Shown: positions 1,560 to 15,165 of the stretch, piece after piece | Position numbering within the stretch: the first letter of the stretch is position 1 | How the letters are laid out: each line of letters opens with the position of its first letter | Source of the DNA: an archaeon | Lineage (GTDB): Archaea; Asgardarchaeota; Thorarchaeia; Thorarchaeales; Thorarchaeaceae | DNA: 32,000 nt | Assembly (NCBI GenBank): GCA_024275415.1 | Contig: JAJRZD010000105.1 | Coordinates: 1 to 32,000, forward strand | Direction of reading: 5' to 3' | Notes under the pieces: generated by a model | Told to the model about the DNA's origin: nothing | The model's database searches: none | What the model saw: only the letters and a program-made list of their open reading frames with translations | Position numbers and translations under genes: made by a program

Positions 1560-2186
1560 TCAAAGCTTGTACAACTTGCAATAAACGGCAAGGGCCATGA
1601 ATATGAACTCGAAGATAACAAGCATGATTACGAAGTTCCGTCCATGACCTGTTGAGATAAAATACCCGTATTCCGAGTACACCTGTACCTCCTCCATATT
1701 GAGAGCATCAGCAATTCTCCTTGCAAAAGCTGTTTCAACCTTCTCAGACGACACCTTATACCACCATAATAGGAGAGGAGTAAAGGCACTCCCGAAAATG
1801 CTGATCATGAAAGCAGTATCATTCATTCCAGAAAAGTATGCTGAGAAGAGAAAGAGGAACAGGAGAATGCTATAGAAGAGCAATATCAAAGTTGGAAGAT
1901 AGCCCATACGAATGGTGATGTCGTCATCATTGAACAAGGATGTCCTAGCAAAGGTGCTAATCATCATCTTGACACCTGATTCGATGTCCGTGTCATAGAT
2001 ATCTGCTTCTAACACATCATCCCGCACTTCCCACGTACAATTTCGTGCACTGGAGTGTTCGACCTTATTGAACGTGAATCTACATTCAACAGGAACCACA
2101 TCAAAGATTCGCCCAAGATCTAGTGCATTGTATGCACTCAGAAGCGTTCTTTCTGCCTTACTCCGATCCATCATTGCAAACATCAT
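1560..2186 (-). CDS. Hypothetical membrane protein (soluble N-domain plus about 3 TM helices); last gene of the putative surface operon
   Basis: 208-aa ORF starting 5 nt after the stop of the giant gene. Hydrophobic segments LPTLILLFYSILLFLFLFSAYF, AFMISIFGSAFTPLLLWWY and FVIMLVIFEFIFMALAVYC. Confidence 0.8.
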   Translation of the reverse strand: MMFAMMDRSKAERTLLSAYNALDLGRIFDVVPVECRFTFNKVEHSSARNCTWEVRDDVLEADIYDTDIESGVKMMISTFARTSLFNDDDITIRMGYLPTLILLFYSILLFLFLFSAYFSGMNDTAFMISIFGSAFTPLLLWWYKVSSEKVETAFARRIADALNMEEVQVYSEYGYFISTGHGRNFVIMLVIFEFIFMALAVYCKLYKL

Positions 2187-2191
2187 TCCTT

Positions 2192-5100
2192 CTAGTAGTT
2201 CTCACGTTCTACCTCTTGACAAGTCCTAAGTATGAGTGATATTGCACCAAGAATGAGTCCTACTCCAATAGAACCGGAAAGCATACCATATTGCATCTCC
2301 TTTGAGGTGTAGCCGGTCTGTCCTTTCCTATTCTTGTACACCCTATCCAGTAAAATGACTGCAACAACTCCTGCAATCAATCCTTGGAGTACGGTTAATA
2401 TCATTGATGCAATGATCTCTCCGCCAGTTGAGAAGTTGCTGATGATGAACTCACTAATCAGCCATGATAGCACTGTGATGACTGTTGTTGATGTGAACAC
2501 GGCGATGAACGTTTCCATTTTCGCATTTGGAGCTTGGCGGAATCCATTGACTATGAAGATTATTCCAAGCGCAATTAGACCAAAGGCAATCCAGACGCCC
2601 CATGGAAACGGGCCACCAGATTTGGTAAGGAACGAAGATCCTGAGATTCCCATAGAAAGCTCGATGAAGAACAGGACCAAAAGAACATTCAATCCGGTGA
2701 AGATACCGCCGAGAATCCCACTTATTAGCCCAGCAGCCCACCAAGGCATCTTTTCCGCATTTCTCGCCCATATCTTTCCAACAAGGCTTTCTATAGCTAT
2801 GGTTAGTAGCACACCGCCAAAGAACGCAAGCAACGCCACAAGAAACGCCTTGAGATTCCAAACATAGAAGTGTACGGTATCACTCAGCTCTTCGTTATTG
2901 ACTTCACTCTGAACCTCAACCTTGTGAGCTCCATTTCTTAGAGCGTCTCGATTCAAAAATCCAGATTCCTCAACAGTCTGCAACGAATACCGATAGTATA
3001 GAATAGCTCCATTCGAGGAAACATAGGAGGTATCAGGTTCTACCTCTATCGGATCTCCACCATCTACAGCGATAGTAGAGTTAATCTCACCAAGAAATTC
3101 TGGAAGGTATAGAGCCCATCGAACCTCAATAGTTTCTTGATTTTCAAAAACGTCATGTTCGTTGATATTGGTGATTTCAATCCTAGGGCTATCTATCTGG
3201 ATGTCACCACCTTCTATCGAGCCCGATTCAGTTGTAATAGCGATTGCTTCAGGGCTAGATGGAACCAAGGTGTTTGGTGAAACGTACGTTGATTGTGATT
3301 CCACAACGGGATTCTCGAATACTCCGATCAAATCATCCACTATGGCAGACAGTGGTCTTCCGTTGAATGAAGCGATGGTGTCTGTGTCTGAACCGCCGCC
3401 TAATTCGAAGTTCAATGTGGGCGATGTGATTTTCAAGTTGAATTCGTTATAGATATATGGAATCGGAACAGGGACCGTCGTCCACCCAATAATCGGCAGC
3501 CAAATATCGACGTTAACAATCCTAATCGAGGGATACGCTATCTTTTTGATATTGAAGTGCGTATCACCAGCCTTTGCATCAGCCATTAGGAAAGCGAGAC
3601 ATCCGAATGAGGTGAACTCGAGTGCGATGTCAACTGCGAGTAGAAGAATCACTGGTAGCACCCATAAGGGGGAGATTCCGCTTTCAGACTTTCCTCCACC
3701 CTCAGCAACGGTCACGGTCGTGCTCAATCGGAAGCCAACTTCCTCGACTAAGAAAAGAACCTCACCATCGAAAGCTGATTCAAGAACGAAGTCCCCATGT
3801 TCCTGAGGTGTCCACGAGTAGTGTGCTTCGCCAAAATTGTCAGTTTCCAGAAAGAGAATGTTCAATTCATTTTCGGGATTCTCTATTGACAGCTCGATGA
3901 AGCGTTTAGGTAGGGGGGCACCATCTTCATCCGTTAGTTTAATGCGGATGTCTTGCTTCTCCAGACTTTTCATATTATCGGGGTAGAACATCTCAATGGT
4001 AGTATACTCGAAGCATATGAATGTCAACGAGTCGCCGATAACATTATACACCCTGCCCAGATGAGTTCCTATTTGAACAGTGTGTTCACCAGCCTGTAGA
4101 TCGTCTGGCAAAGTGAAGGTGACCTTGTCAAAACCACTATAGTCATTGAAGGATTGAATTATCGTCCCATCTACAAGTACATCCAGTGTGATTGTTTCAA
4201 TCAGATCCGCATTCGTTAAATCATCTATTAGCGAAAGCGATAGGTTCAATGTGTCACCGCGATGGGCGTAATCAGTGCTCAGTTCTATTGAATCAACAGT
4301 CACATCTCTACGCCAGATAGTTTCAGTGATTCTACTGGATACGGGGTCAAAGAATATCGAACCCTCGTATGATGACCTGACGTAAAGTCCTCCACTTTGT
4401 TTGGGATGATATCCGAGATGAACAAGCCCATTGCCATCTTGACGGCTCTCAGTGATGCCTGAGAAATCTTCCCCGTTGATGGAGTAGTCCAGCGAGAACC
4501 CTATCAGCGGCTCATTATCCTCGTCAAATAACACGAATCGGAAATCAGTGGATTGTTCTACGTAGAAATCATCAACAGGCTTGGAGTCCCTTTCGGGGGT
4601 AATTGTCAGCGAGGTTCTTTCGATTATTCTCAGATCGAACTCTGTTGAGCCAGAGTAGATGTAATCCTTCCCTACTGATACAATGAAGGTGCGATTTCCT
4701 GCCTGTACCCATGGGTTGGATATCGAATCAGTTGGGATCGTCCAAGTGCCACGGATCTGACCATTCGTTCCGTATGTTTCCATCTCGTATGAAACGATTT
4801 CAAGGCTTAGGTCATCAGTCCAGTTCAAGTAGAAGGTCACTCCACTCTCAACTGGCACCATTGCATCAAGGTCAGGGTCATATCTTGTAGCAAACCCTGA
4901 GAAGGCAATGATATCATTCCTGTGCGCGGCAACTTGGCTTAACACTAGTGATATTGCAAGGTCAATCTTCTCTGCGACCATCGTGTCAGTACTGATAGCT
5001 GCGCCATAGTGATCATCACCAACAAATCTTGCTTGGATGATATATTCTCCAAGATAGGGTGGAATGTAGCGATATGATGCGATGCCATTCGTATCAGTCT

Positions 5101-8100
5101 GCAATGTTACAGACTGAACCACAGAACCCTCATGTGATATTGTGAGTTCGATGTCCCGATTGCCCAACGGAAGCCCTAGTTCATCAGTGAGAGTGACATT
5201 CATCTCTACAGGCAACGAGATAGAGGCTTGGCTTGGAGCTGAAACTGATAGAACCGAATTGGATTTCCGGATCGTCAGGCTAGTGCTAATATGCTCCGCA
5301 GAGGATTTCGCAAGGGTTCCGGGAAATACGACTTTGACCGTGTAGTTACCAGCAGGCAAGTTTGCGTTCCATGTCAAATCAGCCCATCCATCGGCTGAGG
5401 TCAATGCCCAACCCATCGGCACCCAAATGTTGTCATATTGGATATAGAAGAGCAACACCTCACTCTCTATGGGCAAGCCCAATGTGTCTTGAAGATGGGC
5501 TGAGATAACCACATCATGACCATAAATCGCAGAGGCATGAACGAGATAGATTTCGGTAGACTCAGGAAGGACTGTCAAAGTGCCTTGCGTTGCAACTGGA
5601 AGTGTCATCTCATCTCCATCAAAAGCGATTCGATAGGCATACTTGCCTGGAGAGAGGTCGACCATGTAGTTGACGCTTGCATACCCACTCACATCTGTTT
5701 CCACTTCATCCAACAGACGCCAGGTCTGTGTTGAAGAGTCATAAAGCTGGAATAGAACTGGCTTCTTGTATAGCGGATAGCCTTTGCCATCCTCGATGCG
5801 AGTGTCCAAGATTACTTCATGTCCTGTTACAACCAATTTCTCAGCACTGAAATCTGTGATGCGTGAGGACTGCCTGAGAACAGAGAGGGCGTCTTCCAAG
5901 AGGAGCGAGCTGGGAGCGTAGTTTGCATCGCCTTCGAATCGGATCTCGACTCCATGAGTTCCCTCCACCAGATAGGGTGTGTACACCAGTTCAGCAACAC
6001 CTTCAGAGTTGGTCTTATTCTGACCAATCCAATGGGTTGCATCATCGCGTCGGAGATAGAAGTCAAGTGTGCGGTTCTCCAAAGGCATTCCATAGTAGTC
6101 ATACAAGGATGAATATAGGGTGACAGGATGAGCGTATTCTGTCCAGTACTGTGTAGCATGTCCGGCAGCGGGCGATACAACTGTCGCAGCGCCTTCGACG
6201 GTAAGTAGCTTCAATGTCACTGCGCTGTCATGATTGGCGTCACCCTCATAGGTCGCATTGATGACGTAGCTTCCTTTTGGCAGGTTCAGTGTCCAGTCCA
6301 GACTGGCGATTCCTGTGTCGCTGGTCGTTGCAGTCCCGATCTCAGTCCAAGTGAGATTCTGTGCAGGACGATAGTAGAAGGTGACATCACCATTCGGCAA
6401 TGAGATGTTCTCGTACATTCTTGACAGTTGGGCAGCAAGGGAGATTGTTTGTTGCTTCGAGTAATACTGAATCGTTTCGCTTTCTAGGAGGATTTCCAGG
6501 GTCGTGGCAACCTTTGAAACCACCATTGTGATCCAACTTGTATCCCCATAGATTATTCCTCCAGATTCGGCTGTAACGAATGTATTCACAGTATAGGACT
6601 TTCCTGGAATGTACTTGGACTCGGAAATCCTAAAGGATACATTGACTAGGCCAGAGCCTATTCCGGCAACGGTATCAACTGGATTCCTAGCGGCATCAAG
6701 AATTGTCACGACATACTTTCCTTGTGCCACAAAAGAAACATCTAGTGTTCGCCTTAGAGGGACAATGATATATGTTGCATTGGGGGCTGTCGTAACTGTG
6801 GGGGTTATCGCCTCTTCGACCGCCAACGTGTTGTAGGTTATTCCAAAATCACTCATTCCTCGTGAAAAGGTTATGCTCTCGGGGGTGTAACCATTAGCAA
6901 TCACAATGTCGGAGTCCTCAGCATCAGTGGCGGCTGATACACCATCAAAGTTTGTCTGTAGATTGGAAAGCAGATTTGCCTCGAATGGATGGTTGTATGA
7001 TTCCAGAGCTAGACTGACATAGAGCATACCAACTGTCAGCAGTATTGCCATGCAAAGGAACATGAACTTCCGCAGTTGTGGGTTAAGACGGACAAAGTTC
7101 ACGCTGGCTGCAAGAAGCACCACAACAATGGCTGCCGCAAAGATGGAGTCCACCGAACTCGAATCGGTGCCAAAGTGGTTTGCACTATTTATGACATAGT
7201 CAGGAGCTTCTAGTTTCTTTGGCCATAGTCTAATGGGTGTCTTGGCATAGAAAGTCATTCCCTGATATTGTTTGGATGAGCCTTCAGCACCTAGAAGCAC
7301 GGCTTGATATCCCATGGAATCCACAGATCTGGGAGTGTTCCATAAGAGTATAGCAATGCCCTCACTGTTAGTGGTGTTGGCTCCAAGGAAATGCTCTTCG
7401 CCAGTTTCATCAAAGTAGAAGAACCGGACAGAGAACCCAGCAACTGGTTGTCCATTCAATGAGTTCACAACATTTGCCTGGAGCAGTACGGAATCGTCGC
7501 AGTAGATATCCTTTGGAAGCTCTCCAAATGATATCGTCACTGGGATGTGAGAAACAAGCATAGTGGATACATTCATTGATCTGGTCATACGCATATTATA
7601 GAACAATTGTGAAACCCATCTGAAACCAGAGGCGATTTGTCCTCCGCCATGTTGACACTTGACCCTTAGAGGGACAGTCCCTCCAAGAAATTCTGCATGT
7701 ATTGAATACTGACCAGCTTTGGAAGGTGTCCAATACAATGTATTGTTGTTTGAGAGATCCACTTGGTACTCAAAGATATAACCATCTGGACCGATGATAG
7801 TCACGTTGACATAACCACGATAGATGGTGTCGCCTATCTCATCACTTACATTGAAGTATATCAATTGAGGGCCACCTGAGAACATCCTAAGGTTGTCATT
7901 CTCAAAGCCGATTTCAACACTCGTTTGAATCAGATGGGAGGCCATTTTTGCGAGATCCATGGAAGGAAGATAAGTGGTGTTACCGTCATACTCTGCAATA
8001 GCGATTGCTCTGGCAGCGAATAGAATCCTATCAACCGCCCTTGAATCCAGAGTCAGTGTGAAGGTGTCATTCAGCCCAATGATGATGGTGAACTCGTATG

Positions 8101-11100
8101 TATGCCACAAAAGGTCTTCCAAATGCTGTTCAGCCTCGGGTGAATGCTTTGCATACCGTGCGTTGAATCCACTGCTCCAGAACTCTGTGTAGTTATCTGT
8201 TAGGGTTAGCGAAACAATTGCTCCATCAAGAGAGTTGCCAAACTCGTCAACTAGGTCGATGTCAAAGACGTATGTGAAATTGAGAGCACACTCGTAGTAA
8301 TCCTCAACATCTATTGAAAGGGTCGTTCTAATTGGATCGACTCTGATGGCAAGGATGTTGCTCATGGCTGCTTCATATATCTCAGAGCGTTGGACGATTG
8401 CGAAGATGCGGTAGGTCTCATAATGGGGAGGTGCAGACCATGTTATTTGTCCCATCCCGTGCCCATCCACAACGACAGAACCCAATGTTTCAAGGTTCAG
8501 ACCCACTCTGCGTACCAGATGAACGGTTATAGGTTCCAATAAAAGCTCGTTTTCAGTCGCATTCAAGTCAACTACATAAATATCTATAATGATGTCCTCA
8601 AAGGCATATACCGAACTCGGGGCTGTGATTTGTACATCTAGAAGCCGCCAACTGACAACAAAGAATGCAGGGGCGGAAGCAGATTCGTCATAATACTGAC
8701 TGCCCCTATAGATGCATTCTATGATATACATCCCATAGTTGGGGGCTGACCATACAAAGGTACTATTCACTCCTGTCAATACGGTGATATGATCCTCAAA
8801 GACATCGTTTCCGCCTGCACTCCTTATCAGAATCTCAACATACTCGCCAAGTAACAGGAATCCGTATTCATCCCATAGACGTATAGAAACGTTGACGTTG
8901 GTCGCGTCACCTCTCCACGATGCTTCGACCTGAATCGATGTGTCGATTAGTTGGTAGGATGTCACTTGGACTTCGCTGATACCTGTTTCATGAACATCAT
9001 TTCGGAAGGACAATGCGAATATAGTCAAGTCCTGGATTGGAATGACGGGCGCTTGCCAAACAAAAGACGCAGTGCCACTGCTATCAGTGACCGCAGTGCC
9101 AATCGCGGTGAATATGCCCCATGCAAGGAATTCACTAGCCAGAGTTTCATTGATGCTGCCGGTCATATTCCAAATTGGCATGAATACAGACTGGTTCTCA
9201 AGGACATAGCAATAGAGTACCGTGACATCTGCCATAGGCAACCCTGTGAGATTGTCAGTCACAGTGGAGGTAAGTGTGTATGAGATTTCAGACGGAGATA
9301 CATATGGGTGAATCACATCGGGTAGAGGATCTAATGTCACTATAGTGGAACGCCTGATTATCGTGATGACTGACGTAGAAGAACTTGGCTCATAGGTTTC
9401 CTGACCCAAGAACACACAAGTGATTACGATGTCACCGTTTGTATCGGGATGGAGCAGAATGGAATTATTGTACTCGGTCAGAAAGGTGTAGGAAGATGTG
9501 GCACCATTCCATGTGATATTGACGAGGACTTCAAGGTCGGCAACGGGAACACCGTGAATATCAACTACTTGGAATTCAATGAGGATGTCTTCACCAGCCA
9601 CAGCTTGGTTCGATTCGGGTGTTGAGGATATGTGGGTGAATGTCTTCAAACCATTCACGGTAAATCCTTGCGAAATCTGGCTGGACGCATAGACCTCAGA
9701 GCCTGCATATGACAAGTTCATTGTATAGTTCCCCCAAGTATCTAAGGTCACCACAAATGAACCATTAACTTCCGTAACAATGACAAAGGAGTCATAGTAA
9801 CCAGAAGTGCCACTGAGCTGAACAAGAACCTCGGCTGAAACTGTGTTCATAAAGACATCATACAGGTGAATGTTAACTGTAATGGATTCACCTGCTGAAA
9901 TCAATGTTGGCGAGAGGAATGGTGTGTTGAAGGAAGTACTGATTGTCGGAATGCTAACCGGTACCAAACCGACTCCGTTCAGGTAGCTGATAGTCTGGTT
10001 TGTTTCTACTTGAAACTGTATGTCCTTTCCAGCAATCTGTAGCCAGTCATCGTAACTCGGATCCCATGTCAGATAAGCAAGCCCAAATCCATCCGTGGTG
10101 GAGATCCCAATGACATAGTTCTGGTCATCAAGGGTGTAGCTGAAAGTAACCTCTAGACCTTCTATCGGATATCCTGATGCCCAAGCATCAGTCAGTTCAG
10201 CTGCCAAGACGATTGGGAGTCCGGGGGTGATCCCGTCGTCAATATCAAGAGTTAGATTGACCGGTCGCTGACCTTCCACAGACACAGTGAGACTGCTATT
10301 GGCAATATCGAGATAATAACCGCTTGGGACATAATCAAAGAGGAGTGTATATTCTCCAGCTTCAGTAAGATTGTACTTAAACAGGGCATATACACCGTCT
10401 TCGTGCAGCGTTTGATAGATTGCTATGGTGGTGTTGACATTAGGTCCAGTTATTGTTACCTCGACCAATTGGCCTATCATAGTATCGTCTAGGCCATACG
10501 AGTCCAACATCGTAACCTGCACCGTGAGCTGCCGTTGATCATACACAGTGGGGACATAGTGAACGATTACAGCATCAGCAGGGTCAAAGAGCCAGGATGG
10601 CTCCTCGAACAGTGTGAATCCTGCGAGGTTTGACGAAGGCGCCTTGGTGACATCGTAAAGGGGATAGTCCATGTTCAAGATGACTATGTAGAGATCAACT
10701 GGTCCCGCAACGAGATTAGAAGACAAACCGATGGAGAAGTATATCGTCACTTGTCCAGAGTTCGCTATAGTTGCTGTCGAAAGGAGAAGATTCTCGTTCC
10801 CTTGCACCGCATGAAGTTCTATCTCGAATGGCAGACCAGGTGGGACAATACCTTGGCTATCAGAAAGCGAGAGTGTGACTGAATGAGTCACTCCAAGAAC
10901 GATATCATAATCAACAGGCGTTTCCAGTGTCCATACTAAATCCGCCTTGCCTACGGAAACTATCACACTACGCTCAATGAGAGAAACAGAAGTAGAAGTC
11001 ACTACAGGGAACCTTAATGCATGTGCTGAAGTGTCCCAAATCACATTGGGGTCATCGACGAAGGAAATCGTGTCAGAGCCATCGACGTAAGAAATGTCTT

Positions 11101-13150
11101 CTAATGACCACATATCATCATAAGGTGGTGCAATCATAAATCGAAGCTCTGTATCAGTATCGCAGTTCGGAACGTTGAACACCAGTACAAGCTGGGAATC
11201 ACCTATTGTTGCACGGGCATATCCAATATAATTGCCATATTGATCCACCACGGGGATGAACGGTGCTACATAGTCGTCCTCATTCCTAAGGAGAACAATC
11301 AGGTTCACTATCTTTGTGTTGCCAGCATTATCAGTCGCAACAAATCGAAAGTGATGATAGCCATCCTGAATTCCTGTCGTTGGCCATGAATAGGTCCATG
11401 ATGTGCCACTGAAGGAAATGTCAATCGCGTCGTTGCCATCAATACTCACAGTGAACGAAGAGATCCCAGCAACTGACCCGTTTATTTTGCCCGAAAAGTC
11501 TATGGAGGAACCAGACACAGTATCTAGGTCACTATGGGATGTCACCTCAAGTATCGGTGCCGTGCTATCAAAAATAACACTGGCGGTGCTGGTCTTAGTA
11601 GCTACATTCCCAGCAACGTCAATCACTGTGACGTTCTTGATAGTATAAGTCCCCTCAAGATTTCCGGCTTCTAGTGTGAATCCGCCTTCACGATATACAG
11701 TGTCTTCGATGCCCGAGGAGGTTTCGGTTGATAGAGATACTGTAAAGTCGTTGCCAGCGGGATCTGTCACTACAGCGGTAACTTTCGAGATGCCAGAGCC
11801 AGATTCGGTGATTGCTGTTTTTATCGTGAAAGTTGTACCAGATGATCCGTAGGTGGGTGAGAAGGAGATTGTGCCAATGACGGGATCGGTGTTGTCAACT
11901 CGCACTGGGAATGTTTCAAGTCCGAAGTTTCCTGCATAATCATATGCGCCTATGCTGATGAACCTCGTTCCATCATCCACTTCGGTGGTGTCTATACTAC
12001 ATTTCCACGAAGATGTCCCTATAGCATCCACCCAGCTCCCGGTTCCGATTCGGCCAATGACCTTTAACAGCCCGCTCCCCTCAGTCCCATCGGAAGCGAT
12101 ACCACTCACTGTTATGGTACCTGAAACCCATCTGTAAGGTGACGGAGATGAGATGGTTATGGTGGGAGATTCATTGTCGACCCTGAAAGTGATACTCTCT
12201 CTCGTTCGGGTTCCAGTCGCATCGACCACATAAAAGTAAGCAATGTGTTCGCCATCCGTAAGTTCTGTCGTGTCAATCTCGGCTGTCCATGATGAGGTCC
12301 CATTACAAGAGGTCCAAAAGAGGAACGGATAAGCAAGTTCGATAAGGCCAGGATCGACCATGAAGTATACACCATTAAACCCTTCGCCTCTGTTATCAAC
12401 AGCGGTGCCGGAGAAGGTGTACTTTCCTCGAATCCACTGGTCTTCAACAGGGTCTGCTATCGTAAGGGAGGGAGGCGTACTTCCCAGATATAAATCATCG
12501 AAATATGCATCGATATAATGCCACCACCAACTCTCGGTTCTCACATGACACCATATCTCGTCGATTGATTGGGATGTGGGATCCTCCCCCTTTCTACTGA
12601 TATCATAGTAGATTTTTTTGTAGAAATGTTTCCATACATCCTGGGTGGAACCCATATCAAATGTATACTGTTCTCCGTCGATGTCTGGCATATCAAGATT
12701 GTCACTAACATAGTACACAAGCCAGTAGTCAGCGGGCGTGATATGAAGAACAATCGCGACAAAACGCTTGGTTGCATCAGAATCGAAGTACATGGCCCCT
12801 CCGAGAACGGTCGTACGTGTTATTGGGACGGGATCCAATGATTGATATACTGTTGCAAATGCAATACCTCCAGTAGCAATTGTTCCAGATATCTGTAGAG
12901 ACTTTGAACCTTCATATTTTTTGGAAGTGGTTGAACTCCATGTGCCCGTAAATCCTGATTTTGCATCCCATGCTATTGTGCCATCCTCGAAACCTGAATT
13001 GATAATGGCATTATCATTCGGAGGGTCACTCCCGCCATCTCCGGGGTCAATGATAGGCTCTGCAGCAACGTTGGTGGTTAGACTGCTTCCTATGACTAAT
13101 ACTGTCAAGCATGCTAGTACTAAGACCAGATATTTCGTTTCCTTCTTCAT
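2192..13150 (-). CDS. Giant (3652 aa) membrane-anchored Ig-like repeat surface protein / putative adhesin with an N-terminal CBM4/9-like domain
   Basis: Signal peptide MKKETKYLVLVLACLTVLVIGSSLTTNVAA. NAIINSGFEDG...W resembles the start of CBM_4_9-type beta-sandwiches. Many beta-rich Ig-like repeats, internal hydrophobic segments near aa 2000-2045 and 3155-3190, and a C-terminal multi-TM region. Confidence 0.9.
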   Translation of the reverse strand: MKKETKYLVLVLACLTVLVIGSSLTTNVAAEPIIDPGDGGSDPPNDNAIINSGFEDGTIAWDAKSGFTGTWSSTTSKKYEGSKSLQISGTIATGGIAFATVYQSLDPVPITRTTVLGGAMYFDSDATKRFVAIVLHITPADYWLVYYVSDNLDMPDIDGEQYTFDMGSTQDVWKHFYKKIYYDISRKGEDPTSQSIDEIWCHVRTESWWWHYIDAYFDDLYLGSTPPSLTIADPVEDQWIRGKYTFSGTAVDNRGEGFNGVYFMVDPGLIELAYPFLFWTSCNGTSSWTAEIDTTELTDGEHIAYFYVVDATGTRTRESITFRVDNESPTITISSPSPYRWVSGTITVSGIASDGTEGSGLLKVIGRIGTGSWVDAIGTSSWKCSIDTTEVDDGTRFISIGAYDYAGNFGLETFPVRVDNTDPVIGTISFSPTYGSSGTTFTIKTAITESGSGISKVTAVVTDPAGNDFTVSLSTETSSGIEDTVYREGGFTLEAGNLEGTYTIKNVTVIDVAGNVATKTSTASVIFDSTAPILEVTSHSDLDTVSGSSIDFSGKINGSVAGISSFTVSIDGNDAIDISFSGTSWTYSWPTTGIQDGYHHFRFVATDNAGNTKIVNLIVLLRNEDDYVAPFIPVVDQYGNYIGYARATIGDSQLVLVFNVPNCDTDTELRFMIAPPYDDMWSLEDISYVDGSDTISFVDDPNVIWDTSAHALRFPVVTSTSVSLIERSVIVSVGKADLVWTLETPVDYDIVLGVTHSVTLSLSDSQGIVPPGLPFEIELHAVQGNENLLLSTATIANSGQVTIYFSIGLSSNLVAGPVDLYIVILNMDYPLYDVTKAPSSNLAGFTLFEEPSWLFDPADAVIVHYVPTVYDQRQLTVQVTMLDSYGLDDTMIGQLVEVTITGPNVNTTIAIYQTLHEDGVYALFKYNLTEAGEYTLLFDYVPSGYYLDIANSSLTVSVEGQRPVNLTLDIDDGITPGLPIVLAAELTDAWASGYPIEGLEVTFSYTLDDQNYVIGISTTDGFGLAYLTWDPSYDDWLQIAGKDIQFQVETNQTISYLNGVGLVPVSIPTISTSFNTPFLSPTLISAGESITVNIHLYDVFMNTVSAEVLVQLSGTSGYYDSFVIVTEVNGSFVVTLDTWGNYTMNLSYAGSEVYASSQISQGFTVNGLKTFTHISSTPESNQAVAGEDILIEFQVVDIHGVPVADLEVLVNITWNGATSSYTFLTEYNNSILLHPDTNGDIVITCVFLGQETYEPSSSTSVITIIRRSTIVTLDPLPDVIHPYVSPSEISYTLTSTVTDNLTGLPMADVTVLYCYVLENQSVFMPIWNMTGSINETLASEFLAWGIFTAIGTAVTDSSGTASFVWQAPVIPIQDLTIFALSFRNDVHETGISEVQVTSYQLIDTSIQVEASWRGDATNVNVSIRLWDEYGFLLLGEYVEILIRSAGGNDVFEDHITVLTGVNSTFVWSAPNYGMYIIECIYRGSQYYDESASAPAFFVVSWRLLDVQITAPSSVYAFEDIIIDIYVVDLNATENELLLEPITVHLVRRVGLNLETLGSVVVDGHGMGQITWSAPPHYETYRIFAIVQRSEIYEAAMSNILAIRVDPIRTTLSIDVEDYYECALNFTYVFDIDLVDEFGNSLDGAIVSLTLTDNYTEFWSSGFNARYAKHSPEAEQHLEDLLWHTYEFTIIIGLNDTFTLTLDSRAVDRILFAARAIAIAEYDGNTTYLPSMDLAKMASHLIQTSVEIGFENDNLRMFSGGPQLIYFNVSDEIGDTIYRGYVNVTIIGPDGYIFEYQVDLSNNNTLYWTPSKAGQYSIHAEFLGGTVPLRVKCQHGGGQIASGFRWVSQLFYNMRMTRSMNVSTMLVSHIPVTISFGELPKDIYCDDSVLLQANVVNSLNGQPVAGFSVRFFYFDETGEEHFLGANTTNSEGIAILLWNTPRSVDSMGYQAVLLGAEGSSKQYQGMTFYAKTPIRLWPKKLEAPDYVINSANHFGTDSSSVDSIFAAAIVVVLLAASVNFVRLNPQLRKFMFLCMAILLTVGMLYVSLALESYNHPFEANLLSNLQTNFDGVSAATDAEDSDIVIANGYTPESITFSRGMSDFGITYNTLAVEEAITPTVTTAPNATYIIVPLRRTLDVSFVAQGKYVVTILDAARNPVDTVAGIGSGLVNVSFRISESKYIPGKSYTVNTFVTAESGGIIYGDTSWITMVVSKVATTLEILLESETIQYYSKQQTISLAAQLSRMYENISLPNGDVTFYYRPAQNLTWTEIGTATTSDTGIASLDWTLNLPKGSYVINATYEGDANHDSAVTLKLLTVEGAATVVSPAAGHATQYWTEYAHPVTLYSSLYDYYGMPLENRTLDFYLRRDDATHWIGQNKTNSEGVAELVYTPYLVEGTHGVEIRFEGDANYAPSSLLLEDALSVLRQSSRITDFSAEKLVVTGHEVILDTRIEDGKGYPLYKKPVLFQLYDSSTQTWRLLDEVETDVSGYASVNYMVDLSPGKYAYRIAFDGDEMTLPVATQGTLTVLPESTEIYLVHASAIYGHDVVISAHLQDTLGLPIESEVLLFYIQYDNIWVPMGWALTSADGWADLTWNANLPAGNYTVKVVFPGTLAKSSAEHISTSLTIRKSNSVLSVSAPSQASISLPVEMNVTLTDELGLPLGNRDIELTISHEGSVVQSVTLQTDTNGIASYRYIPPYLGEYIIQARFVGDDHYGAAISTDTMVAEKIDLAISLVLSQVAAHRNDIIAFSGFATRYDPDLDAMVPVESGVTFYLNWTDDLSLEIVSYEMETYGTNGQIRGTWTIPTDSISNPWVQAGNRTFIVSVGKDYIYSGSTEFDLRIIERTSLTITPERDSKPVDDFYVEQSTDFRFVLFDEDNEPLIGFSLDYSINGEDFSGITESRQDGNGLVHLGYHPKQSGGLYVRSSYEGSIFFDPVSSRITETIWRRDVTVDSIELSTDYAHRGDTLNLSLSLIDDLTNADLIETITLDVLVDGTIIQSFNDYSGFDKVTFTLPDDLQAGEHTVQIGTHLGRVYNVIGDSLTFICFEYTTIEMFYPDNMKSLEKQDIRIKLTDEDGAPLPKRFIELSIENPENELNILFLETDNFGEAHYSWTPQEHGDFVLESAFDGEVLFLVEEVGFRLSTTVTVAEGGGKSESGISPLWVLPVILLLAVDIALEFTSFGCLAFLMADAKAGDTHFNIKKIAYPSIRIVNVDIWLPIIGWTTVPVPIPYIYNEFNLKITSPTLNFELGGGSDTDTIASFNGRPLSAIVDDLIGVFENPVVESQSTYVSPNTLVPSSPEAIAITTESGSIEGGDIQIDSPRIEITNINEHDVFENQETIEVRWALYLPEFLGEINSTIAVDGGDPIEVEPDTSYVSSNGAILYYRYSLQTVEESGFLNRDALRNGAHKVEVQSEVNNEELSDTVHFYVWNLKAFLVALLAFFGGVLLTIAIESLVGKIWARNAEKMPWWAAGLISGILGGIFTGLNVLLVLFFIELSMGISGSSFLTKSGGPFPWGVWIAFGLIALGIIFIVNGFRQAPNAKMETFIAVFTSTTVITVLSWLISEFIISNFSTGGEIIASMILTVLQGLIAGVVAVILLDRVYKNRKGQTGYTSKEMQYGMLSGSIGVGLILGAISLILRTCQEVERENY
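3720..10760 (-). repeat. Two blocks of degenerate ~100-aa Ig-like (Big_1/invasin-like) protein repeats
   Basis: At least ten copies of a G-x-x-x-T-[DN]-x-x-G-x-A-x-x-x-[WY] motif, e.g. IGISTTDGFGLAYLTW, IGTAVTDSSGTASFVW, LGANTTNSEGIAILLW, IGTATTSDTGIASLDW, IGQNKTNSEGVAELVY, MGWALTSADGWADLTW. Confidence 0.7.
11301..12478 (-). repeat. Four tandem Ig-like (Big_3-type) protein repeats
   Basis: Recurrent P-x-[IL]-T-I-x-x-P...GTSSW...IDTTExxDG...D-x-A-G-N...[RI][VF]D pattern, best conserved in units 1, 2 and 4. Confidence 0.75.
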
Positions 13151-13209: not shown

Positions 13210-15165
13210 TCACTCCCTATCGCGACCTCCGGAATCGGATATGGGAGAACCAGCAAGCACAGAAGTTGGTGCTGTTCTTGTGGTTCTGCTTCTTAGAACA
13301 AGTAGAACTACAATGGCCAGCGAGCCAGATATGCCACCCATCACGAGAATAACCAAGAGAAGATCACCTTCTGGAGTTGGTTGTGATGTGTCAGTCAGGG
13401 TAGGGGGTGGCGTAGTATTGCTTGTGGAAGTGCTTGGGTCGTATACTACATACTGATAGTACAACCCGGAATCCATGAACTCTTGCGAGTTTCCAACTGA
13501 ATCATTTGCGAGGATATAGTACTGCACAGTGGTACCATTTGATTGAGCAGGAATGTCACCACTGTAGTTCCCATTTTGTCCTTTTTGCATGATGATGATA
13601 TTCCAGCTCGTTCCAGAATCAACAGAATAGTTCAAGAGTACTGTATCAACAACTCCAATGTCATCAGTGATGTTCGCTATGACTGTGACATCGTCCTCAG
13701 AGGTCGGAGCCTGAGGGAGCTGCTCTATGGAGTGACAGACTGGGGCTGAACCATCGACCCTCGCTTCTTCGCGTTGACTGTCAACATAGACTCCAAGGGC
13801 ATCGCCCACAGAAACATAATACTCGATGACACCTTCGGTAAATGGACCAATCTCGGCAGCGAAGGTAACTTGGGAAATGAACAGTGAGGTCGTGTTCTGC
13901 ATTGTCACGTTAGACCAGATTCCCGAGTCCTGTCGGAAGTATAGAATGGCATCCCAGATGTGAAAAGTGCCTCTGGAGGCATTCGCTTGGATGAGCAGAG
14001 GGTCTGTTGGGCCATACAAACCAGATAGTTTTGCGATAGATGCAGTCGCTCTCTCAAAATGATGGTAGATAGTACGGTTCTCGGCACCGACCACTATCCG
14101 ATTGCCGTCTTCGGATATTCCCACTTGCCAGATCGTCCCATCCATGTCGATACGTAATCTGGTTCGATTGTTATCCTTCCTGAACAGATACGCAGATGCA
14201 TCATAACCACCGGCCAAGATGATAGAACCATTGCTCACCATATCGATCTCGGTGATTTGGTTTGTACCATTGAATGTCCATAATGTGTCATTTGAAGAGA
14301 ATTCAAACAGGTAGAGATTCGCTCTGGAAACAGCTGAGGATGTCCCAACTGCTATTGTCGAGCCATCCGCTGATATCTCTGCAGTGATGAAATCATTTCC
14401 AGTATACTCCCAGATCGTCGAATTGCTCGTCCTCTCGAAAGTGTAAATCCTTTCAGATGAAACACCGACAATTCTAGAACCATCCCTATTAATGCCTAGG
14501 CCGTTAACCCATCCTCCCATATCATAGGTCCACAGTGTGTTGTTGGAGTTTCGATCGAATGCGTAGAGTGTATTGTTCCTTCCACCAGAAACGATTGTGT
14601 TCCCATCATATGATATCGCAACACGCCACATCGGCTCTGGGGACTTGTATTTCCAAAGCGTATTGTTAGAACGATAGTCAAACAGGTAGGTCCATCCGCT
14701 CCAGTCTACAGCGGCGATTGTAGACCCATCGCCAGAGATAGCAATGTCAACAATCCAACCGGACGCATTGTAACTCCAGAGGGAGTAATTGCTGTCCTCC
14801 CCCATAAGATACACGAATCCACTTCCTAGTGCAGTCCCAACTGCTGTCAGTGACCCATTTTCGCAAGTAGAGAGTGAGAAGATATTCTCAGATGCATTGA
14901 AGGTCCATAGTGATATATTAGAGGAAGGGTCAAGTCGATGAAGTAGGTTATCTGACACGACAAAAACAGTACTTCCATCGTCAGATATTGTTGCCTTTGT
15001 CCATGATTCGTTTGTAGTGAAGTTCCAAGTCGTGGGCACGGTGTCATCTGAAAGAACTGATTGCATACCAGATGCAATTACACCTTCAGAGAATGCAGGA
15101 GAAATTACCGGGAGCGCTCCAAGTCCAAATAGGACAACACATAGGAATACCATGAACTCTCTCAA
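13210..15165 (-). CDS. Secreted, C-terminally anchored WD40/PQQ-like beta-propeller protein with two Ig-like domains
   Basis: Signal peptide; about 8 repeats of ~40 aa (xNxTLWxY...hxhSxDGSxhhxG...YLF); beta-rich domains; S/T/P linker; TM LLLVILVMGGISGSLAIVVLLVL followed by RSR. Start may be TTG 15165 or ATG 15153. Confidence 0.88.
   Translation of the reverse strand: MREFMVFLCVVLFGLGALPVISPAFSEGVIASGMQSVLSDDTVPTTWNFTTNESWTKATISDDGSTVFVVSDNLLHRLDPSSNISLWTFNASENIFSLSTCENGSLTAVGTALGSGFVYLMGEDSNYSLWSYNASGWIVDIAISGDGSTIAAVDWSGWTYLFDYRSNNTLWKYKSPEPMWRVAISYDGNTIVSGGRNNTLYAFDRNSNNTLWTYDMGGWVNGLGINRDGSRIVGVSSERIYTFERTSNSTIWEYTGNDFITAEISADGSTIAVGTSSAVSRANLYLFEFSSNDTLWTFNGTNQITEIDMVSNGSIILAGGYDASAYLFRKDNNRTRLRIDMDGTIWQVGISEDGNRIVVGAENRTIYHHFERATASIAKLSGLYGPTDPLLIQANASRGTFHIWDAILYFRQDSGIWSNVTMQNTTSLFISQVTFAAEIGPFTEGVIEYYVSVGDALGVYVDSQREEARVDGSAPVCHSIEQLPQAPTSEDDVTVIANITDDIGVVDTVLLNYSVDSGTSWNIIIMQKGQNGNYSGDIPAQSNGTTVQYYILANDSVGNSQEFMDSGLYYQYVVYDPSTSTSNTTPPPTLTDTSQPTPEGDLLLVILVMGGISGSLAIVVLLVLRSRTTRTAPTSVLAGSPISDSGGRDRE

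Follow-up and report, generated by a model that had tools for sequence, protein, structure and literature searches.

Does a very long archaeal surface protein that carries a membrane hairpin in the middle of its chain remain one molecule, or is it cut there into two? The question is raised by a giant open reading frame (ORF) in a 32,000-nucleotide (nt) stretch of Asgard archaeal DNA (Thorarchaeaceae; assembly GCA_024275415.1, contig JAJRZD010000105.1, positions 1 to 32,000), referred to here as the window. On Asgard cell surfaces, giant proteins make up the main unexplored component, and little is understood of how a chain of several thousand residues is exported and anchored. The family of the giant ORF offers a clean, conserved case of a chain that leaves the membrane, returns and leaves again. 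An original prediction made from the sequence alone had read the ORF as two or three surface proteins joined head to tail, either stitched through the membrane or cleaved by signal peptidase like viral polyproteins. On balance, we lean toward the hairpin being a stop-transfer/signal-anchor pair that stitches one very long, uncleaved polytopic protein through the membrane. The gene in question is:

2192..13150 (minus strand): whole giant ORF, 3,652 amino acids (aa) plus stop; collinear full-length homologues of 3,563–3,650 aa

It translates as a single uninterrupted frame of 3,652 codons and is the largest open frame of the 3.5-Mb, 127-contig genome that carries the window.

A conserved hydrophobic hairpin in the middle of the chain

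The hairpin region comprises:

7091..7147 (minus strand): TM1, the first transmembrane (TM) helix, aa 2002–2020, SIFAAAIVVVLLAASVNFV; predicted stop-transfer helix (out to in) in which A2014 and P/S2016 are conserved (hydropathy, alignment)
7067..7090 (minus strand): predicted cytoplasmic turn RLNPQLRK, aa 2021–2028, with near-invariant Asn2023 (alignment, charge pattern)
7007..7066 (minus strand): TM2, aa 2029–2048, FMFL...VSLA; predicted re-initiating helix (in to out), ending in the invariant L-Y-x-x-[LM]-[AG]
6968..7006 (minus strand): conserved juxtamembrane motif, aa 2049–2061, [LIVM]-E-S-x-x-H-P-F-x-A-x-L-[LIV] (alignment)

The strings quoted in the original prediction, an anchor-like TM segment, RLNPQLRK and a signal-like helix ending in S-L-A before L-E, were located at window 7147..7001, and the proposed layout of anchor, basic cytoplasmic loop and signal-like helix fits hydropathy, charge and alignment. 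Kyte-Doolittle means over 19 residues were 2.48 for TM1 and 2.38 for TM2, against 2.33 for the N-terminal signal peptide of the same protein, and were on a par with the C-terminal helices; the strongly hydrophobic 19-mers of the hairpin were aa 2002–2020 and 2031–2049. The turn is 8 aa long in all members of the family, carries a Lys/Arg charge of +2 to +4 and is nearly free of acidic residues, whereas the 15 residues outside either helix are acidic. Two helices of TM length at a conserved place, with a short turn between them that follows the positive-inside rule, are what is expected of a polytopic hairpin, and the conserved charge pattern suits the stitched-through-the-membrane alternative of the original prediction. 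Among 53 frames of at least 1,000 aa in the genome, this was the only closely spaced hydrophobic pair lying mid-chain between long TM-free stretches. AlphaFold2 (AF2) models of the hairpin region and the C-terminal module were of low confidence (mean predicted local distance difference test score, pLDDT, 50.9 and 52.2, respectively) and were used for secondary structure only; in the hairpin region they placed helices at 1998–2019 and, continuously, at 2024–2053.

An exhaustive profile search of 1.84 billion representative proteins recovered 7 with the whole hairpin region (E below 1e-30). These representatives are 31–42% identical to one another and collinear end to end; the five complete members measure 3,563–3,652 aa, and the hairpin always falls near residue 1,900–2,050. 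The juxtamembrane motif is the best conserved part of the hairpin region. Queries with the C-terminal module and with the hairpin region detected homologous frames in four further genomes of the same taxonomic family, one of them complete at 3,650 aa. Distribution is rare and patchy: the giant family occurs in 5 of 87 genomes of the class, and among 400 Asgard genomes the C-terminal module was found in the same five, the remaining matches covering one immunoglobulin (Ig)-like domain only. Because it is present at the homologous position in every relative, the hairpin is beyond chance, and it is real, conserved and almost certainly membrane-inserted.

Two of the five family-bearing genomes, G006 (contigs C247 and C364) and G034 (C179 and C438), carry two diverged paralogues each. 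Those of G006 are ~34% identical, and all paralogues of both genomes end at contig ends.

Anchor-like features of TM2

If TM2 were cut by signal peptidase, the bond would lie between A2048 and L2049, which corrects the placement given in the original prediction. The natural yardstick for such a site is the signal peptide at the start of the same chain:

13064..13150 (minus strand): N-terminal Sec-type signal peptide, aa 1–29, with a basic n-region, a 15-aa h-region and a polar c-region ending V-A-A↓E-P (hydropathy scan)

TM2 has an uninterrupted apolar run of 20–24 aa in every member. Within this genome, such runs have a median of 21 in 34 C-terminal anchors (interquartile range, IQR, 18–23) versus 15 in 83 N-terminal signal candidates (IQR 12.5–17.5), and a run of at least 20 is found in 68% of anchors versus 16% of signals. 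The N-terminal signal peptides of the family itself have apolar runs of 11–20 aa and polar c-regions (mean hydropathy about 0 to 0.5). As background, signal-peptide h-regions span 7–15 residues, shorter than TM helices, and c-regions consist of 3–7 polar residues, as described with the human signal peptidase complex structure (10.1101/2020.11.11.378711). The six residues before the TM2 site, L-Y-[VTIG]-[SVG]-[LM]-[AG], have a mean hydropathy of 0.4–2.4, mostly ~2, lack proline, a helix breaker being usual in c-regions, and do not form a polar c-region; the +1 residue is also hydrophobic.

In conservation, TM2 averages 1.40 bits per column versus 0.65 for the N-terminal signal peptide, which among homologues retains its layout with low sequence conservation. 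L2043 and Y2044, at positions -6 and -5, are invariant, and neither is required for peptidase recognition. The conserved residues L-6, Y-5, L-2, A/G-1, E+2 and S+3 share one helix face, and between -11 and +8 the periodicity of conservation is strongest at exactly 100 degrees per residue (p = 0.007 by permutation, and 0.002 between -8 and +5), in windows chosen with the alignment in view. Because the conserved helix face spans the putative bond, the alignment suggests, as moderate evidence, that both sides of it belong to one structural element in the working protein.

Under the uncleaved reading, the N-terminal signal peptide would take an Ig-type ectodomain of 2,000 residues across by the Sec channel until TM1 stopped translocation, and the 8-residue basic turn would stay cytoplasmic. 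TM2, as an N-in signal-anchor, would then open the channel again so that a second ectodomain, of 1,100 residues, could pass, itself to be re-tethered by an element containing S-P-L-W and by a six-helix C-terminal bundle (described below). TM2 would most likely stay uncut, with its outer-leaflet end and E-S-x-x-H-P-F forming one continuous conserved helix face that may pack on another membrane element. A complex prediction of the hairpin with the C-terminal membrane module scored 0.00, below the mark and without controls, a result that is neutral either way. If the protein is uncleaved, its architecture would be unusual: a rod of Ig domains held at both ends, beside a 2,000-residue free arm.

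Several observations pull in the opposite direction. The periodicity windows were picked after the alignment had been seen, the seven sequences are related and hence not independent, and AF2 confidence was low (mean pLDDT 51–52). Small residues occupy -3 (S/V/G) and -1 (A/G), and Glu occupies +2, in all members, so that the (-3,-1) rule is satisfied. Counting 3–7 residues as c-region leaves an h-region of 13–17 aa, at the upper edge of the signal-peptidase range, and a Thr/Ser/Gly cluster 8–10 residues before the site could mark an h/c boundary. Finally, the uncleaved chain leaves a rod of ~10 Ig-like domains tethered at both ends, whereas cleavage gives two ordinary C-terminally anchored stalks. 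No precedent for a doubly tethered rod of this kind is known to us.

Possible cleavage at the hairpin

The best surviving alternative is a signal-peptidase-processed polyprotein, in which TM2 is an internal signal peptide and an archaeal type I signal peptidase cuts after [S/V/G]-[L/M]-[A/G]. We regard it as a serious possibility, though not the probable one. Its products would be a ~2,020-aa adhesin anchored by the TM1-TM2 hairpin and a ~1,600-aa protein anchored by the C-terminal helices, with the new N-terminus L-E-S-x-N-H-P-F. Every member reads [S/V/G]-[L/M]-[A/G]↓[L/I/V/M]-E-S, free of proline from -3 to +1 as well as bearing the Glu at +2, and a basic n-region (+2 to +4 Lys/Arg in all members) stands directly before TM2. 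The enzyme is at hand: one gene of this genome matches archaeal signal peptidase I with 94 bits, a score that exceeds the family cut-off. Both products would have the standard architecture of surface proteins in this genome, and a distant stand-alone protein, P0016, combines an N-terminal signal-anchor with a first domain like that of the second block of the giant and Big_3_5-type repeats. Moreover, vertebrate astrotactins, of the same topology, are cut by the endoplasmic reticulum (ER) signal peptidase just after their second TM helix (TMH2) (10.1101/493858).

Against these points stand the base rate of the site and the character of the helix. Conserved small-x-small triplets occur at 54 of 3,237 testable column triplets (1.7%), some of them inside other helices, and the chance of such a triplet within 2 residues of a given helix end is ~8%; conservation at -3 and -1 is therefore compatible with a cleavage site without being compelling. 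TM2 is of anchor-like length, its "c-region" and +1 residue are hydrophobic, and peptidase recognition explains neither the invariant L-Y at -6/-5 nor the helical conservation across the site. The two blocks were found as separate genes in no relative searched. An unsupervised expectation-maximization weight matrix for cleavage sites, built on the 83 N-terminal signal candidates, converged on the hydrophobic core and was discarded.

An Asgard cellular polyprotein, cut after TM2 by a Sec11-type signal peptidase to give two surface proteins in a strict 1:1 ratio, is on present evidence doubtful. Equally tentative is the display of the conserved L-E-S-x-N-H-P-F as a neo-N-terminus at the tip of the second stalk. 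Should cleavage occur, the protein would be an archaeal counterpart of signal-peptidase-processed polyproteins, considerably more interesting than an uncut chain. It would also be, to our knowledge, the first archaeal example of the maturation route of enveloped-virus glycoprotein precursors and astrotactins.

Proteolysis in or near the hairpin by a different enzyme, whether an intramembrane or a surface protease, or a hairpin that is not inserted in the membrane, is improbable. Nothing specific favors it, although the conserved E-S-x-x-H-P-F outside the membrane could in principle serve as a recognition site for a protease other than signal peptidase; no protease gene is conserved beside the giant gene, and both helices resemble TM anchors in hydropathy and length and flank a conserved basic turn. 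An internal translation start at Met2030 or Met2034 was also considered and set aside, no Met being conserved there among homologues.

A chimeric assembly, which the original prediction had itself named as fatal to its proposal, or a sequencing error losing a stop codon or shifting the frame at ~7000-7160, can be excluded, since independent assemblies show the same collinear gene. Although the window belongs to a metagenome-assembled genome (127 contigs), no evidence for an artifact was found. The same uninterrupted fused frame recurs in Candidatus Thorarchaeota isolates A361, C14-20 and A399 and in Logan contigs (other samples and genera), identity is 30–50% per 100-residue window on either side of the hairpin, and G+C content is flat at 0.45–0.48 across the gene, with no compositional break.

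A probable fusion origin and the search for split forms

Where would a chain of this kind come from? At least 34 proteins of the genome (each of at least 600 aa) share one build, in which a signal peptide is followed by an ectodomain free of TM segments and then by a single C-terminal TM helix with a basic tail (median ~7 residues). Block 1 of the giant (aa 1–2028) has the architecture of these standard surface proteins and is followed at once by the signal-like helix; unlike a standard single-anchor protein, which ends at the basic stretch, the chain continues for 1,624 residues beyond it. Because block 1 looks like an ordinary surface protein of its genome, an ancient head-to-tail fusion is a reasonable origin, and, as the simplest account, the hairpin probably arose by in-frame fusion of two adjacent surface-protein genes before the family diverged. 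The head-to-tail part of the original prediction thus gains from the likeness of block 1 to ordinary surface proteins. Its suggestion to look for homologues in which the blocks are separate genes gave a negative result: no split-gene form was found in the profile search of 1.84 billion proteins, in 87 genomes of the class or in 400 genomes of the phylum, and word-index searches limited to shorter proteins returned none matching the hairpin region or the C-terminal module.

The profile search yielded two marginal cases only. P0016 is a 1,124-aa protein from an AT-rich genome (L025:286-3657; GCA_054384095.1, JBQSDD010000253.1) and is cut by the contig end. Its gene stands alone with its own AT-rich upstream region, and the protein carries a signal-anchor at its N-terminus, together with the juxtamembrane string H-x-F...[ND]-L. 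About 130 residues past the anchor lies a domain resembling the first domain of block 2 (hidden Markov model E = 2e-6), followed by Big_3_5-type repeats collinear with block 2 at 20–23% identity. P0016 may be an unfused relative of block 2 and hints that a block-2-like protein can exist alone. The second case, P0009, is a 151-aa hairpin-only ORF (L026:1211-1666) that includes E-S-x-x-H-P-F and is 42–49% identical to family members. It lies on a 2.5-kb Logan contig (L026:1-2497, run ERR15087787), where a frameshifted giant-family 3' end and a gene for a 200-aa membrane protein precede it and a radical-SAM-like gene follows it. In this setting, P0009 resembles the decayed remains of a second family copy more than a split form that still functions.

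Domain organization and C-terminal topology

Outside the hairpin, the giant protein is divided as follows:

7148..13063 (minus strand): ectodomain 1, aa 30–2001, a weak CBM_4_9-like tip followed by Big_7, Big_13, Filamin-like and MG4-like Ig-type repeats (Pfam, alignment)
3677..6967 (minus strand): ectodomain 2, aa 2062–3158, a variable linker, a conserved P-N-A-[ST]-Y domain and ~10 Ig-like domains (Big_3_5 x4, Big_1) (Pfam)
3581..3676 (minus strand): second hydrophobic element, aa 3159–3190, S-P-L-W-x-L-P ... [DN]-x-x-L-E-x-x-T-[FY]-G (hydropathy, alignment)
3566..3583 (minus strand): ADAKA↓G, aa 3190–3195, proposed second A-x-A site, not conserved
2849..3580 (minus strand): domain 3, aa 3191–3434, beta-rich with one Ig-like domain
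2228..2848 (minus strand): C-terminal six-helix membrane bundle, aa 3435–3641, without family match (hydropathy scan)

A variable linker precedes TM1 in ectodomain 1. The second Ig-rich ectodomain announced by the original prediction is present, with Pfam matches over aa 2050–3158 to Big_3_5 in four stretches and to Big_1. Domain 3 and the six-helix bundle gave no Pfam match above the cut-off, NCBIfam gave no significant match on the hairpin or the C-terminal module, and an ESM Atlas look-alike search with aa 3150–3652 gave no usable match.

The original prediction had also noted a second hydrophobic segment near aa 3155–3190 ending in an A-x-A site. The element itself was recovered at aa 3159–3190 and ranks with the best conserved parts of the C-terminal module: S-P-L-W-x-L-P is invariant, and the middle of the segment holds Asp/Asn and Glu but lacks basic residues; the low-confidence AF2 model (mean pLDDT 52.2 for the module) placed one helix at 3161–3180. 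The site did not fare as well. ADAKA↓G is present in the window protein, but its -1 column reads Y, V, M, L, I and L in the six homologues in place of A, and comparison of the sequences indicates that the second A-x-A site is probably due to chance.

Loops of the C-terminal bundle alternate between Lys/Arg-rich (+2 to +5) and Lys/Arg-free, so the stretch leading into the first helix of the bundle should lie outside the cell, and domain 3 with it. With domain 3 and both large ectodomains outside, aa 3159–3190 should cross the membrane an even number of times, and the element is probably a tight or re-entrant (half-membrane) hairpin. The resulting topology model has three extracellular parts, of 2,000, 1,100 and 240 residues, and about ten membrane segments.

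Comparison with known systems

In local topology, the hairpin matches vertebrate ASTN1 and ASTN2, which have a signal peptide, an extracellular domain, two TM helices with a cytoplasmic segment between them and a large extracellular domain, with a (-3,-1)-type site at the end of TMH2 (10.1101/493858). Signal peptidase cleavage of astrotactins has been shown experimentally, and the fragments stay disulfide-linked (10.1101/493858). The archaeal protein differs in having no sequence relationship to them, three times the length, eight more membrane segments and several features of an uncleaved anchor.

Other precedents share one feature or another. The flavivirus prM-E-NS1 and bunyavirus Gn-Gc precursors are cut by host signal peptidase. 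As in the giant, their first helix anchors the upstream ectodomain and the second is the signal for the downstream one; unlike them, the giant is encoded by a cellular archaeal gene and has one hairpin rather than several, and its processing is putative. In Bradyrhizobium japonicum, processing of the FbcH cytochrome b/c1 precursor into two proteins was reportedly established experimentally by Thony-Meyer et al. in 1991. FbcH is likewise a prokaryotic one-gene precursor with an internal signal-like segment between two membrane/periplasmic modules, but the proteins are unrelated, and processing is established for FbcH and only putative for the giant. Omnitrophota "Archaeovorins" are also very long, mostly extracellular and punctuated by TM helices, and pose the same question of one chain or several; they are bacterial, ten times longer and unrelated in sequence, and they contain SecA-like and peptidase domains, whereas the giant family has no embedded protease (10.1101/2023.11.21.568195).

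Closest to home are ordinary giant surface proteins of archaea built from Ig repeats; this genome encodes at least 34 of them. They match block 1 in architecture and in their Big_3_5, Big_1, Big_7 and Big_13 domains. The giant differs by re-entering the membrane, by 1,600 more residues and by a multi-helix bundle in place of a single anchor, and we regard it as a new architectural variant of this class. At ~60 residues, its hairpin is short enough to serve as a convenient test substrate for how a eukaryote-like archaeal signal peptidase separates signal peptides from anchors. Because the family is very small and confined to a few Thorarchaeota, its wider impact will be modest unless the principle proves general.

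Neighboring genes and other large frames

Two genes closely flank the giant gene in the window:

13210..15165 (minus strand): 651-aa surface protein of beta-propeller type (PQQ/WD40-like), with many N-x-S/T sequons and a TM anchor at the C-terminus; its gene lies 59 nt upstream of the giant gene
1560..2186 (minus strand): 208-aa membrane protein without Pfam match, 5 nt downstream of the giant gene

A 33%-identical beta-propeller homologue lies directly upstream of the giant gene of genome G010, and on the contig of family member P0002 a 674-aa beta-propeller gene overlaps the P0002 start. Judged from gene order, the beta-propeller gene and the giant gene look like a conserved two-gene unit. 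The 208-aa membrane protein gave no tblastn match in relatives' loci at 1e-3 and is not claimed as a conserved partner; on both the P0002 contig and L026, the giant gene is followed by a gene of similar size (195 and 200 aa).

Elsewhere in the same genome, the minus strand of contig C38 (G000:C38, from ~nt 3676 of the reverse strand) carries a 2,101-aa frame with ~40 hydrophobic segments throughout, which is either one polytopic membrane protein of unusual size or several fused together.

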